A stretch of 64,000 nucleotides of DNA from Escherichia coli. GTDB taxonomy: Bacteria > Pseudomonadota > Gammaproteobacteria > Enterobacterales > Enterobacteriaceae. The stretch is from the NCBI RefSeq assembly GCF_041248615.1, contig NZ_CP158426.1. One strand, 5' to 3'. Position numbers and translations under genes: made by a program. The notes under the pieces were generated by a model. That model was not told the origin of the DNA and searched no databases. It was given only the letters and a program-made list of their open reading frames with translations. This document shows positions 1,253 through 23,211 of the stretch, one piece after another (position 1 is the first letter of the stretch; every line of letters begins with the position of its first letter).

Positions 1253-2262
1253 TTACTGAGAGCTCAGATCAACTTTCCAGGGCAACAGATCGCGTACCCG
1301 GTTTGTCGGCCAGTCCTGGATATGCTCAATGACGTAACGCAGCCATTTTTCTGGTTCAACATTGTTCAGACGGCATGTGCCGATCAGCGAGTACAACACC
1401 GCCGCATGTTCGCCACCGCTGTCGGAACCCGCGAACAACCAGTTTTTCCGGCCTACGTCCACTCCCCGTAAGGCGTTCTCTGCGATGTTGTTGTCGATTT
1501 CCACCCAGCCATTACTGCAGTACACGTTCAGGCTATCTCACTGTTTCAGCAGGTAGGCGAACGCTTTTACCGTATCCGAGTGACGCGACAGTGTTTTCAT
1601 CTGGGTCTGTATCCAGTCATACAGTGACTGCATCAGTGGCGCAGCTCTGGCTTTTCTTGCCGCCAGACGCTGTTCTGCTGTACATCCCCGGACTTCTGCC
1701 TCGATGGCATACAGTTCACCGATACGCTGCAGGGCTTCCGTGGTGATGTCAGTTGGCGCTCTTGCATGCAAATCGTGGATTTTCCTCCGGGCATGGGCCA
1801 TACACGCGGCTTCCGTTATTCTGCCGGATTCGTATAACGCCCGGTAACCACCGTAAGTATCGGCCTGAAGCACACCGCTGTAACCGGCCAGATGATTCTG
1901 TGGATGGATACCTTTCCGGTCCTGACTGTACGCGAACCAGACCGCCGGGGGCATCTCCGACCCGGCATTACGGTCATCACGGACGTAGACCCACAGCCTG
2001 TCCGTTCGGTTTTTACCACTGCCTGGCTCCTGGACCGGAACGGGGATATCATCAGCATGGACTTTACCGGGCATCAGCACATACTGGCGCAGGACGTCAT
2101 ACAGCGGCTCCAGCAGTTCAGCAACGGTGTCAGCTCCACGTCCTGACTGCGGTATATTTCTGACTGACGGTATAACGGCAGATGGTCTGCATACTTCCCG
2201 GTGACAACATGGGCCAGAAGCCCCGCTCCGGCATAACTGTGTGCAATGGGTTTTGAATGAGC
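1253..2262 (-). pseudogene. IS66-family transposase TnpC, 3' portion (frameshifted)
   Basis: ORFs 1253-1525, 1538-2296 and 2074-2292 carry IS66 TnpC-like sequence in different frames ([23 protein letters not shown] ...). Confidence 0.6.
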
Positions 2263-4215
<1,953 letters not shown>

Positions 4216-6858: not shown

Positions 6859-8286
<1,428 letters not shown>

Positions 8287-8939
8287 TGAACTGAATTTAC
8301 TTTGAAAAAATGTAAAAACATTTAAATCATAGCCAGAAGCCGCGATTATTCAGTGCTTCTCATTTTATATTTTCTGCAAATTTATATGTGGTATAAAATA
8401 ACACCCTTGTCATTCAGGTATAAAATATCATCATCGTACAGTAAAGGATATATAAATATAAAATTATACTATTCAAAATATGGTGCATTCTTATTCATGA
8501 TAGGAATACTTAGAACATCATTTTTTCATTGTAGACCATGATTTCGGATTTGAAAAGTTCCTTCCCCAGTAATCTCTAGTTTTTATTCTCAATTCAACCC
8601 AACTCTTCCCTATACAAACTAAAAAACATTGTTCTATTGATAGATACTTCTCAGTAATCAGATAAAAAACTATAATATTGCTGTGCATGATGTACATATT
8701 TAAAATGTCATGAGTACATCCCTTTTATTTGAAAAACAAACTAAAAGAAATCACTTAAATAAAATGTTTTTATATCGTGGTATTTAAGAAAACTTATATC
8801 AAAAAATAAGATATTGACCTTTATTTAAAATTAGATTAGATTGCAAAGATAAGAATACGTGTGATTATTTCTTTAAACACCTGTAAAAATTTATTAGAGC
8901 ATAGTTATATTATTGAACATTGTATTGCTTAGGTAAGGT

Positions 8940-10199
8940 ATGCTGGTATCTAACTATAATTATGTAATCAGCCGTCGTCGTTTACTGCAAGGTGCGGGCG
9001 CCATGTGGCTATTGAGCGTAAGTCAGGTCAGCCTGGCTGCGGTCAGCCAGGTCGTGGCGGTACGCGTCTGGCCTGCGTCCAGCTACACCCGCGTGACGGT
9101 AGAATCAAATCGTCAGCTGCAATATAAGCAGTTCGCGTTAAGTAACCCTGAACGTGTGGTGGTGGATATCGAAGATGTAAACCTGAACTCGGTACTCAAG
9201 GGGATGGCGGCACAAATTCGTGCAGACGACCCGTTCATCAAGTCGGCGCGCGTCGGGCAATTTGACCCGCAAACCGTACGCATGGTTTTTGAATTAAAGC
9301 AAAACGTAAAACCGCAGCTGTTTGCCCTTGCGCCGGTCGCCGGGTTTAAAGAGCGTCTGGTGATGGACCTCTATCCGGCCAATGCACAGAATATGCAGGA
9401 CCCGCTGCTGGCGCTGCTGGAGGATTACAACAAAGGCGACCTCGAAAAGCAGGTGCCGCCAGCACAAAGTGGTCCACAACCGGGTAAAGCAGGGCGTGAT
9501 CGTCCGATTGTCATTATGCTTGACCCCGGCCACGGTGGCGAAGACCCCGGTGCGGTGGGGAAATACAAAACACGCGAAAAAGACGTGGTATTGCAAATAG
9601 CTCGCCGTCTGCGCTCTCTGATCGAAAAAGAGGGTAATATGAAGGTGTACATGACGCGCAATGAAGACATCTTCATTCCGTTGCAAGTGCGTGTAGCAAA
9701 AGCACAGAAACAACGTGCTGACCTTTTTGTTTCTATCCATGCTGATGCCTTTACCAGTCGCCAGCCGAGCGGTTCTTCCGTGTTTGCGCTTTCGACCAAA
9801 GGCGCGACAAGTACTGCGGCAAAATATCTGGCACAAACCCAGAACGCCTCGGACTTGATTGGCGGCGTGAGCAAAAGCGGTGACCGCTATGTCGACCACA
9901 CCATGTTCGATATGGTGCAGTCTCTGACCATTGCCGACAGCCTGAAGTTGGGTAAAGCGGTGCTGAATAAGCTCGGTAAAATCAACAAGCTGCATAAAAA
10001 TCAGGTTGAACAGGCCGGGTTTGCCGTGCTGAAAGCACCTGATATTCCCTCCATTCTGGTCGAAACGGCGTTTATCAGTAACGTTGAGGAAGAGCGCAAA
10101 CTGAAAACGGCAAGATTCCAACAACAAGTGGCAGAATCTATCCTAGAGGGAATTAAAGAGTATTTTTCGGATATAGACGCGTTAGCGAGAAAAGCATAA
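8940..10199 (+). CDS. AmiC-like Tat-exported N-acetylmuramoyl-L-alanine amidase (AMIN + amidase_3 domains)
   Basis: 419 aa; twin-arginine signal [19 protein letters not shown]-like N-domain; amidase_3 core MLDPGHGG...; sits in AT-rich island DNA, not between argA and recD. Confidence 0.75.
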
Positions 10200-10380
10200 T
10201 TTAAAAATGTTTAATATTCTATGTTCTCGGTCATATTTTATTAATTTGGATGAATATATGCTGTTAGTGCTGTATTCTCCGTTTGGATACACCTTTACCT
10301 TAGCGATATAGTTGTGTTATTCATATATAAATATGCCCCGTTTTAATTCCATGCATTTTTATATCTTGGTCAAATAATGG

Positions 10381-11150
10381 TGTCGTCGATATTCTTCCAG
10401 CGTCTTATTGTTCAGTGATTCATGTGTGCGTTCATAGCTATATTCTGATAACCATTTCTCCGTAATTTCTAGAACTTCATTCAGCGTTCTGAACAGATAA
10501 AAATCGAGTATTTCTGTACGGTGTGTCCTGTTAAAACGCCCAATAAAAGCGTTCTACGTCAGCTTACCCGGCTGGATAAACTCCCGTTTTACTGCGTGTA
10601 TATCAGCCCATTCAGCCAGCGTTAGAGAGATAAATTCCGAACCATTATCTATGCGCAGCATGACCGGATAACTGCGATTTGCCGCGAACCTGCTGCCTCA
10701 GAACCTGAAAAAGTTTTGAAAAACCGTATCGAGGATATCGCTCGTCCACTGCCTGCACCACCACAATAACGGGGTCGTACCACGTGGTATCCGGACGGTA
10801 ATGGGAAACCGTTCTGCTCTGGTTCAGACTCCGGCAGGCCTGATGGACACTGAGTCCAAATGTCGTTATCTGATGAGTAACAAGCTCACGCTTACAGGCT
10901 GGTTTTAAAGCTTTTTTCGATAATGTCTTTCAATGCCGGTTCTCTAGGCTAAGGTCGGCAAGCATCTGTTTTGGACGTCGGTTCTCGTCCTCAAGATCCT
11001 CGTTCTTTTTAATATCAGGTGACTCTATGCATCGTATCTGGGCTTCCAGTTCATGGAATGGAGTACCCCCTCCTTTTGCGGTTAACTGTACGAAATGCAC
11101 TCACTCAGCAGGGGAATCACAATGAATATCGTATTCCTGGGTATTGATCT
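10381..11150 (-). mobile_element. IS3-family transposase remnant (multiple stops/frameshifts)
   Basis: Reverse translation gives ...RIDNGSEFISLTLAEWADIHAVKREFIQPGK...ERTHESLNNKTLEEYR with in-frame stops. Confidence 0.55.
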
Positions 11151-18823: not shown

Positions 18824-20911
18824 ATGCGAGTAACCACTCTGGCTTCAGTAGCCATCCCTTGTCTCGGGTTTTCAGTCAGCAGTATGGCTGCGGAAGATGT
18901 GATGGTAGTCACGGCGTCTGGCTATGAAAAAAAATTAACCAGTGCAGCTGCGAGTGTTTCAGTGATCAGCCAGGAGGATTTGCGATCCAGCCAGTATCAT
19001 GATCTGGGGGAGGCACTGAGATCCGTAGAGGGGGTGGATGTTGAAAGCGGTACGGGTAAAACAGGTGGGCTGGAAATCAGCATCCGCGGAATGCCTGCCA
19101 GTTATACGCTGATACTGATCGATGGTGTCCGTCAGGGCGGGAGCAGTGACGTAACCCCAAACGGTTATGCTGCCATGAATACGGGTTTTATGCCACCTCT
19201 GGCCGCCATCGAACGTATTGAGATTATCAGGGGCCCCATGTCCACTCTGTACGGCTCTGATGCCATGGGGGGCGTGGTGAATATCATCACCAAAAAGAAT
19301 GCAGACAAATGGCGCTCTTCGGTTAATGCCGGGCTGAACCTGCAGGAAAGTAACAAATGGGGGAACAGCAGCCAGTTTAATTTCTGGAGCAGCGGTCCCC
19401 TTGTGGATGATTCACTCAGCCTTCAGGTACGTGGCAGCACACAGCAGCGTCAGGGCTCATCGGTCACATCACTGAGCGACACCTCAGCTACGCGTATCCC
19501 TTATCCCACGGAATCACAGAATTATAATGCAGGTGGTCGTCTTGACTGGAAAGCGACGGACAAGGATGTACTCTGGATTGATATGGATATCGCCCGGCAG
19601 CGTTATGATAACCGAGATGGCCAGCTGGGCAGTCTGACGGGCGGTTATGATCGCACCCTGCGCTATGAGCGTAATAAAATTTCAGCAGGCTATGATCATA
19701 CATTCACCTTCGGAGCCTGGAAGTCATCCCTGAACTGGAATGAGACGGAAAATAAAGGCCGTCAGCTTGTACGTAGCGTACTGCAGCGTGATAAATGGGG
19801 GCTTGCCGGCCAGCCGAGGGAGCTTAAGGAGTCGAATCTTATCCTGAGCTCATTACTGTTTGCACCTCTGGGGGAATCACACAAGGTTACCGTCGGTGGT
19901 GAGTATCAGAACTCCTCCATGAAAGACGGGGTTGTTCTCGCCAGTACTGGTGAAACCTTCCGTCAGAAAAGCTGGTCGGCATTTGTTGAGGATGAGTGGT
20001 ATATCACGGATGCATTTGCACTGACTGCGGGTAGCCGCTATGAACGCTATGAGGTGTTCGGAGGACACTTCAGTCCCCGGGCATATATGGTCTGGGATGT
20101 GACTGATGCGTGGACGCTGAAAGGTGGGGTGACCACGGGATATAAGGCGCCCAGCATGGGGCAGTTACATAAGGGGATCAGCGGTGTGTCCGGTCAGGGG
20201 CGTACGAATCTTCTCGGTAACCCGGACCTGAAGCCGGAGGAGAGTGTCAGTTATGAAGCGGGCGTGTATTACGATAATCATGCCGGTCTGAACGCCAATA
20301 TCACGGGCTTTATGACAGAATTCTCCAACAAGATCGTATCTTATTCCATTGATGATAATACCCGCAGCTACACAAACAGCGGAAAGGCTAGGACTCAGGG
20401 CGTGGAATTTGCCGGCACACTGCCTCTGTTGTCAGAGGATGTGACTCTGTCTCTGAATTATACCTGGACGCAGAGTGAACAACGGGATGGGGATAATAAA
20501 GGTGCACCACTGAGTTACACCCCTGAGCATATGGTGAATGCGAAACTGAACTGGCAGATTACTGAAGAGGTGACATCATGGCTGGGTGCCCGTTACCGCG
20601 GGAAAACGCCACGTTTCACCCAGAATTATTCGTCACTCTCAGCTGTACAGAAGAAAGTGTATGATGAGAAAGGTGAATATCTGAAAGCCTGGACGGTACT
20701 GGATGCGGGCATGTCGTGGAAAGTGACGGATGCACTGATGCTGAATGCAGCGGTGAATAATGTGCTTAACAAGGATTACAGTGACGTAAGTCTGTATCGT
20801 GCCGGCAGTGGTACGCTTTATGCGGGTGATTACTTCCAGACGGGGGCATCGACAACGGGTTATGTGATACCTGAGAGAAATTACTGGATGTCGCTGAACT
20901 ATCAGTTCTGA
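18824..20911 (+). CDS. iha: Iha, IrgA-homologue adhesin / TonB-dependent catecholate siderophore receptor
   Basis: 695-aa outer-membrane protein with signal peptide, TonB-dependent receptor plug and barrel, C-terminal ...NYWMSLNYQF; matches recalled Iha. Confidence 0.8.
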   Translation: MRVTTLASVAIPCLGFSVSSMAAEDVMVVTASGYEKKLTSAAASVSVISQEDLRSSQYHDLGEALRSVEGVDVESGTGKTGGLEISIRGMPASYTLILIDGVRQGGSSDVTPNGYAAMNTGFMPPLAAIERIEIIRGPMSTLYGSDAMGGVVNIITKKNADKWRSSVNAGLNLQESNKWGNSSQFNFWSSGPLVDDSLSLQVRGSTQQRQGSSVTSLSDTSATRIPYPTESQNYNAGGRLDWKATDKDVLWIDMDIARQRYDNRDGQLGSLTGGYDRTLRYERNKISAGYDHTFTFGAWKSSLNWNETENKGRQLVRSVLQRDKWGLAGQPRELKESNLILSSLLFAPLGESHKVTVGGEYQNSSMKDGVVLASTGETFRQKSWSAFVEDEWYITDAFALTAGSRYERYEVFGGHFSPRAYMVWDVTDAWTLKGGVTTGYKAPSMGQLHKGISGVSGQGRTNLLGNPDLKPEESVSYEAGVYYDNHAGLNANITGFMTEFSNKIVSYSIDDNTRSYTNSGKARTQGVEFAGTLPLLSEDVTLSLNYTWTQSEQRDGDNKGAPLSYTPEHMVNAKLNWQITEEVTSWLGARYRGKTPRFTQNYSSLSAVQKKVYDEKGEYLKAWTVLDAGMSWKVTDALMLNAAVNNVLNKDYSDVSLYRAGSGTLYAGDYFQTGASTTGYVIPERNYWMSLNYQF

Positions 20912-21844: not shown

Positions 21845-22240
21845 ATGTACCGGATTTTCTGTTCCCTGTTTTTCCTGCCGCTGGCAGCGTCTGCCGGCAC
21901 AACAATTTATACCGATTCTCAGCATCTTCCCGTTAATCCTCCTGATGGTGTCAGGGTGGTTCTGCTGGATGCGCCTGAGCAGCTTCAGAGCCGCTTTTGG
22001 GGCCTGTTGCCTGCTGATGCGGGTGAGGCTGAATCGGTGGTCAGGGTACGTATGAAGTCTCCCGAATGGCAGACGATGCAGGCGGAACTGGCCGGTCATT
22101 ACCGCGATGTGGCACATGCCTAGTCGCTGGGCGTGAAGAAATACCCTGCCGTGGTGTTTGATGACAGTGAGGTGGTTTACGGCACCATGGATGTGGTGAT
22201 GGCCGGGAAAATCCGTGCTGAGGGAGGAGTGCAGCCATGA
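21845..22240 (+). pseudogene. ICE-type conjugation protein with signal peptide, interrupted by in-frame amber
   Basis: TAG at 22121-22123 within ...HYRDVAHA*SLGVKKYPAVVFDD...; stop overlaps next gene start (ATGA at 22237). Confidence 0.45.
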
Positions 22241-23211
22241 TGTCCCTGAAATGTCGTCTGCGTACCGGCGTGCTGTTACTGAGTGTGGCATCACTGCCCC
22301 TGGCGTCTGTATCACTGAACACCGCCAGCATTATCGCCAGTACTGCGGCACCGGACTATATCAGCTGGCGTGTCAGCGGGATTTGTTACTGGCTTTACTG
22401 CAGCGCGTCTGGCTGTACGGTCAGAATTTCCGTGAAGGTGACACATTTCATCCCGGAAGTGGTTATTTCCACCTATACGGCACCGGGTGGTAATCCCTGG
22501 AAAGAGATGTCGCTGGTCAGCCGGACCGCAGGTGGCCCGGAGAATGCCATCACTGACGGCCTGTCCGGGCTGAGTGCCGGCGGGGGAAATCCGGCGGATA
22601 TGAAAATACAGGGGAAGCGCCGTTCAGCAATTCGTTTCAAATATGCAGATGCGCTGGGTCATCCGGCCACACAGCTTATCGGCGGGATGGTACCCGGATT
22701 CAGCTGTGATTCACCGGTGACACCGGCCATGGCCTATTTCCTCAGTACCCTGGACAGCATCGTCTAGCGAACGGGATTACCTGAATCCCTGTATCCAGAG
22801 GCACAGGTTCCCGGCAAACGCGAGATTGGCAGCTAGGCCGATAAAAACATGTGGGGGAGCGTTTATCACCGGAGTGGTTTTGTGATGCAGAGCGATGATG
22901 ACCGGGCCGCGGCGGTGGGGGCTCAGCGGGTGGCCGACATTATCACGCGGATGGGGGAGTCGCATGTCTACAGGGAGGTTAAGGGCGTGAAACGTGACGG
23001 CTACTGGCCCCCGGAGGCGGTGGAGGAAAACACCGGCACCCGCAATCACAAATGGCAGCGACTGACGCCGTCAGTGTCGCGTTCCTGTGCCGTTTTCCCG
23101 GATGGTGAACACCAGGCGGCGGAGAACGGTAATGCAGCCTTTGCACTGTGGCAGCCTTACAGCTGCTTCGAAAAGCGCGGGCAGCGATTCCTTGGCAGTA
23201 CGAATTTTTAA
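22237..23211 (+). pseudogene. ICE-type conjugation protein (TraU-like?), broken by stop/frameshift near 22767
   Basis: Signal peptide, GICYWLYC motif; continues in ORF 22849-23211 in another frame. Confidence 0.4.

Follow-up and report, generated by a model that had tools for sequence, protein, structure and literature searches.

Our analysis of a 64,000-nucleotide stretch of an Escherichia coli chromosome (the window) centres on an extra copy of amiC, an N-acetylmuramoyl-L-alanine amidase gene, which lies in a genomic island and is named amiC2 here. We consider it probable, at roughly 75%, that amiC2 is a horizontally acquired xenolog of amiC whose interior has been overwritten by Escherichia amiC, and that it codes for a full-length zinc amidase with an AMIN domain, exported by the twin-arginine translocation (Tat) pathway. 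The window matches positions 2435672-2499671 of the chromosome of E. coli NRZ14408 (NZ_LT599825.1) with zero mismatches, and the core amiC of this strain was found at record positions 1130256-1131509, where the gene order is recD-argA-amiC-tRNA-Met x3-mltA. Because the core gene is retained at the argA locus of NRZ14408, amiC2 is a true second copy. A first-pass annotation of this DNA had suggested an acquired or recombined second copy outside the argA-amiC-recD context and had advised looking for another amiC at the argA locus; our results support the suggestion and refine it to a three-part mosaic, with a head and a tail that are common to one other gene described below.

The open reading frame (ORF) of amiC2 is intact, spans 8940-10199 (+) with the stop codon within these coordinates, and codes for 419 amino acids; RefSeq annotates it as amiC (WP_192459707.1). 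Like the core AmiC of E. coli (b2817; PDB 4BIN), AmiC2 is composed of a Tat signal, an AMIN domain, a linker and an Amidase_3 domain. The predicted signal peptide covers residues 1-33 (8940-9038 (+)) and has a twin-arginine motif, S11-R-R-R-L-L16 (nt 8970-8987), followed by a hydrophobic stretch and then by S-L-A at the putative cleavage site. Pfam searches placed AMIN (PF11741) at residues 40-144 (9057-9371 (+); 1.9e-21, 76.5 bits) and the Amidase_3 catalytic domain (PF01520) at residues 192-406 (9513-10157 (+); 6.9e-52, 176.4 bits). The NCBIfam AmiC model NF038267, with a cut-off of 700 bits, was matched with 793 bits over model positions 2-407 of 407, and AmiC2 fell under the cut-offs of the AmiA and AmiB models. 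Alignment to 4BIN runs from end to end (E = 3.9e-240) with 4 substitutions ahead of the tail, and residues 10-391 are about 99% identical to core AmiC. The zinc ligands H198, E213, H267 and D269, the blocking-helix Q301 and the catalytic E375 are all retained, within surrounding sequence equal to that of core AmiC and 4BIN, and the interaction-helix segment is identical to that of core AmiC. These residue roles were assigned by manual alignment to the AmiA sequence and checked against H65/E80/H133/D135/E167 in PMC10268282. AmiC2 is an intact member of the AmiC family with all family domains and catalytic residues, so that the 419-residue ORF and the Pfam and NCBIfam matches bear out the full-length Tat, AMIN and amidase_3 protein described in the first pass. 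The enzyme itself is a textbook AmiC, already annotated as such, and the modest novelty of amiC2 lies in its evolution.

The alignment of amiC2 to core amiC, which had been proposed as a way of finding divergence breakpoints, yielded one at each end of the gene. Local homology begins sharply at 8963 (codon 8-9), just 5' of the twin-arginine motif, and the head of the gene (8940-8962 (+), the first ~8 codons, 26% GC) is non-homologous to core amiC. The N-terminus reads MLVSNYNYV in AmiC2 and MSGSNTA in core AmiC, which makes AmiC2 longer by 2 residues; the first 9 codons are unrelated, and the replacement is confined to the N-region (residues 1-9), since residues 10-33 of the signal peptide are those of core AmiC. 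At the other end, identity to core amiC falls to ~70% from about 10110. This tail (10110-10199 (+), the last 29 codons and the stop, 39% GC) still shows homology to that of core amiC (z = 21 over the last ~90 nt), with a synonymous divergence (dS) of >2 and a nonsynonymous divergence (dN) of 0.21, and 10 of the last 28 residues of AmiC2 differ from core AmiC. The GC content at third codon positions (GC3) is 0.31 in the amiC2 tail versus 0.55 in the core tail. The earlier impression that the first ~9 and last ~15 residues of the protein were unusual was therefore accurate for the N-terminus, but the C-terminal divergence is wider than stated and spans the last 28 residues. Outside the gene, neither flank of amiC2 has any similarity to the core flanks, that is, to the argA-amiC intergenic region upstream (z = -0.1) or to the tRNA-Met side downstream (z = -1.0).

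Between these ends lies an Escherichia-like interior (8963-10109 (+)) with 95.9% identity to E. coli core amiC. Compared with the core gene of the host itself, 46 of 1142 sites are different, 42 of the 46 being at third codon positions; 42 differences are synonymous and 4 nonsynonymous (K59Q, D149N, S201P and F335L in core numbering). S201P yields D-P-G, which we take to be the arrangement in AmiA as well. With dS of 0.175, dN of 0.0046 and dN/dS of ~0.03, the pattern of substitution suggests that the interior has been under purifying selection. The interior is a mosaic: dS is 0.16 at 8967-9161, 0.037 at 9162-9521, 0.37 at 9522-9836 and 0.18 at 9837-10109, and the observed clustering of differences was reached in 0 of 300 permutations of a maximum chi-square test. 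Over the 360-bp block at 9162-9521, identity to E. coli core amiC rises to 99-100%. This block is more than a slow-evolving sequence because amiC2 shows 8-13% divergence there from E. whittamii and E. albertii.

A plain insertion sequence (IS)-mediated duplication or relocation of the host core amiC, with the differences at the ends being trivial junction artefacts, could at first sight account for this near-identical block and for the IS3-family fragments present on both sides of amiC2. We regard it as very improbable. The core gene is still in place, and it is identical over 1,254 nt between NRZ14408 and K-12 MG1655, which are strains of different lineages; amiC2 is therefore well beyond the variation between those two, and its 46 interior differences argue against a recent IS-mediated relocation. 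The closest sequenced E. coli core amiC is only about 95-96% identical to amiC2. Nor does the tail behave as a junction artefact, being homologous, in frame and ~70% identical, and recurring together with the head in an unrelated contig, while the flanks are unique AT-rich DNA with neither argA nor tRNA-Met sequence. A simple intragenomic duplicate was excluded since near-identity does not extend along the whole length of the gene (interior 95.9%, tail ~70%, head and flanks unrelated). The opposite case that the first-pass annotation had set out, a sole amiC moved by an IS with unchanged termini, is not what the genome holds, as the core copy was kept and the termini were changed. Apart from its bearing on amiC2, the 100% identity of core amiC between K-12 MG1655 and NRZ14408 represents unusually low diversity for a core gene.

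The source of each piece was sought among 80 core amiC loci of Enterobacteriaceae in GTDB species genomes. For the interior, E. coli gives the highest identity (95.9%), ahead of Escherichia sp. MOD1-EC7003 (93.6%), E. whittamii (91.9%), E. albertii (89.2%) and then Citrobacter and Salmonella at about 83-84%; the interior groups with or beside Escherichia in every segment, with segment 9522-9836 at about equal distance from several Escherichia species. For the tail, identity to the sampled core genes is 55-70% throughout, with 69% to E. coli; the core tails of Enterobacteriaceae, by comparison, have 75-97% identity to the E. coli tail. None of the 80 loci has the head, tail or flanks of amiC2, the best tail in that scan reaching 75%.

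Only one other protein with both ends was found in a clustered collection of 5.8 billion proteins, a singleton of 417 residues (P0074). Its gene lies on a 5-kb contig (DAGCYQ010000186.1, hereafter L087) from assembly GCA_022047005.1, labelled Klebsiella pneumoniae. The identity of this gene to the core amiC of Klebsiella is just 76.5%. The head of P0074 is MLTSNNVISRRR, which has the pattern ML.SN..VISRRR in common with AmiC2, and the two heads also align at the nucleotide level as ATGCTG..ATC..AATGTAATCAGC. The tails of the two genes are 89% identical in nucleotides, and P0074 passes the NCBIfam AmiC model with 780 bits. The L087 gene has the same contrast as amiC2 between a low-GC3 tail (0.28) and an interior of normal GC3 (0.55; about 0.55-0.59 for the interiors of amiC2 genes). 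Unlike that of amiC2, the L087 interior reaches only 87% identity with each of the sampled Escherichia, as it does with amiC2 itself, and about 80% with Citrobacter and Salmonella. Downstream, L087 departs from the amiC2 locus 9 nt past the stop codon.

These comparisons also bear on whether amiC2 might be an unmodified ortholog, taken whole from an unsampled relative of Escherichia and never converted afterwards, so that the variation in divergence along the gene would simply be the donor's own allele. The affinity of every interior segment for Escherichia is compatible with such an origin, as is the uniform ~87% of the L087 interior to all Escherichia, which fits a sister lineage, and the donor allele could have been a mosaic already. 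Still, we consider a whole-gene origin unlikely. The tails of both amiC2 genes (69-74%, where the core tails give 75-97%) place the ends beyond any sampled Enterobacteriaceae, and the interiors are 87-96% identical to E. coli; because the ends are far from E. coli and the interior is near, there is no single phylogenetic position for the whole gene. In both genes GC3 falls from the interior to the tail (to 0.28-0.31), and ends that are 89% alike enclose interiors that are 96% and 87% identical to E. coli. Shared ends around interiors of such different closeness, the sharp breakpoints and the drop of GC3 at the tail in both genes lead us to place the replacement of the interior after the two amiC2 genes diverged.

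The history that we favour for amiC2 would then start with an amiC xenolog from a lineage with a low-GC backbone, acquired on mobile DNA, and of this lineage nothing but head, tail and flanks would still be traceable. Homologous recombination or gene conversion with the core amiC of Escherichia would have replaced the interior of the xenolog on more than one occasion, and the tract at about 9162-9521, which is nearly E. coli sequence, would be the most recent of these replacements. Both the direction and the mechanism of recombination are what we infer from the sequence comparisons. Read in this way, amiC2 would be a clean natural case of an acquired xenolog homogenised by the resident core gene, with its foreign origin legible only at the ends and in the flanks. 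Our literature search returned nothing relevant on a second amiC, on the ynjA/ynjB island in which amiC2 lies or on amidase gene conversion.

The surroundings of amiC2 set it further apart from the core gene. Unlike core amiC, which is found between argA and tRNA-Met, amiC2 does not share the core synteny and is part of a 2.09-kb segment bounded by IS remnants. On the left, an internal fragment of an IS911-like (IS3 family) transposase gene occupies 8092-8234 (+) (RefSeq pseudogene, window 8092-8235, L001 19793-19936), and homology to IS911/IS3 copies of other E. coli genomes stops at 8229-8234 (query 630-635). On the right lies a truncated and frameshifted IS3-family transposase (integrase core) pseudogene at 10326-11051 (-) (RefSeq 10343-11051, L001 22044-22752), where IS3-family homology in other genomes starts at about 10325-10339 (query 126-140). 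As IS homology stops at 8234 and resumes at ~10326, the unique sequence between them defines the amiC unit, in agreement with the first-pass placement of the gene between IS debris. Its upstream part (8235-8939 (+)) has 27% GC overall and 26% at 8290-8939, which corresponds to the ~600 bp of AT-rich sequence noted earlier; the gene interior has 53% and the window 48.7%. The unique downstream segment (10200-10325 (+)) has 28.6% GC. An AT-rich stretch of ~180 bp had been reported there, and low GC does extend to about 10400, but the unique flank is only ~126 bp long and gives way to IS3-family homology from about 10326.

The promoter region of amiC2 is consequently AT-rich DNA unrelated to that of core amiC. 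Promoter-like hexamers were found at 8648-8676 (10 of 12 matches) and at 8814-8842, and a Shine-Dalgarno-like AAGG lies immediately 5' of the ATG. An Rfam scan of 8000-10700 gave no match. Two ORFs in the upstream segment, 8353-8541 (+) and 8518-8697 (-), were judged to be chance, as they are of low complexity and unannotated in RefSeq.

A match to amiC is present in 5,425 of 5,426 complete E. coli genomes, but the full 2,081-bp island segment, at an identity of at least 99%, is found in only 57 (about 1%), in all 57 on the chromosome. In blastn searches of the complete E. coli genomes, the AT-rich upstream segment was confined to the same 57 genomes, and it was found in 0 of 72,556 plasmid records. 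Two amiC places were seen in each of the 25 carrier genomes among the matches listed, in line with the second copy at the argA locus of NRZ14408. Carriers include SMS-3-5, where the IS debris around amiC2 is arranged as in the window, and many isolates from chicken, chicken meat and humans, human extraintestinal isolates being among those with two amiC genes.

AmiC is exported by Tat, is autoinhibited by a blocking helix and is activated when a LytM domain binds its interaction helix; NlpD is its activator, and AmiA, AmiB and AmiC are redundant (PMC10268282). By analogy, AmiC2 would be exported by Tat and recruited to the septum by its AMIN domain, where a LytM activator (NlpD) would release the blocking helix of the autoinhibited zinc domain, and the enzyme would then cleave stem peptides off septal peptidoglycan. 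Transcription would come from a promoter of its own in the AT-rich upstream DNA instead of the core promoter. AmiC2 is thus probably a functional septal amidase that is redundant with AmiC and differs from it in transcriptional control.

A different view of amiC2 is that it is a silent or decaying passenger, without current function and intact only because it is young, and we find this improbable, although it is the alternative to which we give most weight. Its surroundings consist almost entirely of frameshifted IS and remnants of integrative and conjugative elements (ICE), and a further septal amidase would join three that are redundant already. A passenger would not readily explain why the segment is conserved at such high identity in 57 genomes from varied hosts and countries, SMS-3-5 included, when its neighbours are degraded, nor why catalytic and regulatory residues have all been kept and why credible promoter-like and ribosome-binding sites precede the gene.

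Several observations nevertheless weigh against the interpretation that we prefer, of a converted xenolog coding for a working amidase. DNA of ~26% GC 5' of genes is classically silenced by H-NS; such silencing is therefore likely for amiC2, which may be silent in most conditions. No terminator-like hairpin or intrinsic terminator was detected 3' of the gene. The island copies of NRZ14408 and SMS-3-5 differ at only two sites, and both differences are nonsynonymous, as a decaying passenger would predict. The ORF is intact in every copy examined. The low dN/dS of the interior could largely date from its life as a core gene in the donor and is no proof of selection at the present site. Amidase activity, activation by NlpD and expression of AmiC2 are themselves deduced from the sequence and its homology. 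With regard to history, the transfer of a ready-made mosaic Escherichia allele may have taken place instead of gene conversion in situ, and these data fit either course. Finally, nothing closer than L087 was found as a donor of head and tail among 1.84 billion representative proteins, the 5.8 billion clustered proteins, the 80 Enterobacteriaceae genomes and one metagenome scan.

Against the 1.84 billion representatives, the best match to the tail reached 78%, compared with 76% for E. coli, and was no closer than ordinary Enterobacteriaceae tails; this library is clustered at 50% identity and may hide AmiC tails from outside Enterobacteriaceae. A search for homologous proteins with a 42-residue tail query returned short partial proteins alone, apparently because of the way in which candidates are selected. 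An exact-pattern scan of metagenomes gave a single match, which was the same E. coli island (99.9%), and the equivalent scan of viral sequences gave none. Plasmid searches with the amiC2 flanks and with L087 identified no carrier.

Acquired copies of cell-wall enzymes have precedents. Salmonella has PBP2SAL and PBP3SAL, acquired peptidoglycan-enzyme paralogs with ~60-65% identity and experimentally shown condition-specific roles. Like these, amiC2 is an island-borne extra copy of a cell-wall enzyme gene beside the core gene, for which an alternative regulation or activity is plausible; unlike them, as they are strongly diverged, AmiC2 keeps about 95% identity to the core enzyme. Horizontally acquired paralogs of peptidoglycan enzymes in pathogens are the theme of PMC7933661. 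If amiC2 were expressed where core amiC is silent, it would form a parallel to the acquired Salmonella paralogs. In any case, studies of amidase redundancy or of chaining genetics in carrier E. coli backgrounds must consider the second amiC.

A broader proposal would be that amiC2 belongs to a rare, mobile lineage of accessory amiC genes, maintained by repeated recombination with the host core amiC while being separately regulated, and that in poultry-associated and extraintestinal E. coli it perhaps provides a septal amidase for particular conditions or as a back-up. We hold this to be unlikely as a whole. If it were true, recombination with core amiC would keep AmiC2 compatible with the activator and divisome of the host, and the low-GC promoter, the N-region of the signal peptide and the C-terminal helix would give amiC2 its separate regulation. 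A colicin-M-like module on L087, which targets lipid II, might then point to a function in competition or protection directed at the cell wall.

The L087 contig has neighbours that the amiC2 locus does not. At 1.3 kb 3' of its amiC there is a 151-residue ORF with a colicin-M domain (PF14859; 2581-3036 (+)), directly followed by a YebF-like ORF (3037-3444 (-)) that may be an immunity gene. The contig also has an IS3-family element and a small ribbon-helix-helix-like ORF (1482-1664 (-)). When the colicin-M/YebF module was compared with the E. coli island, IS sequence alone matched, and no complete E. coli genome contains the unique part of L087.

In NRZ14408, the insertion between ynjB and ynjA that contains amiC2 is an IS-riddled island of ~97 kb, of which the right ~45 kb are in the window (1-45117); core genes from ynjA to celF occupy 45305-64000. 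A tyrosine integrase gene at 43930-45117 (-) adjoins ynjA. The island cargo comprises iuc/iutA (aerobactin), sitABCD, a YadA-like adhesin, ibrAB, sodC, iha, phoX, an extra cytochrome b562 and many pseudogenised IS and ICE genes. The left part of the island, beyond the window, contains iucABCD-iutA, sitABCD, the YadA-like adhesin, sodC and a group II intron. Within the window, the stretches 18824-20911, 21845-23211 and ~35000-35900 contain iha (a siderophore receptor/adhesin) and pseudogenised ICE genes (TIGR03757/TIGR03756), as well as clustered genes for a PerC-family regulator and a short protein of the ProQ/FinO family, with an ssb-like gene in the same cluster. The content of these stretches suggests that the island was assembled from remnants of ICE or plasmids. 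The extra cytochrome b562 gene and a 57-residue ORF of the YebF family are found at 39526-39915 and 40413-40586. The products of sodC, phoX, amiC2, the cytochrome b562 gene and the YebF-family ORF are mostly periplasmic proteins.

Another unusual AmiC, unrelated to amiC2, came up among NCBI proteins of E. coli, a variant of 479 residues (P0034) with a tandem duplication of ~62 residues inside the AMIN domain (VWPASSYT...IKSAR repeated).

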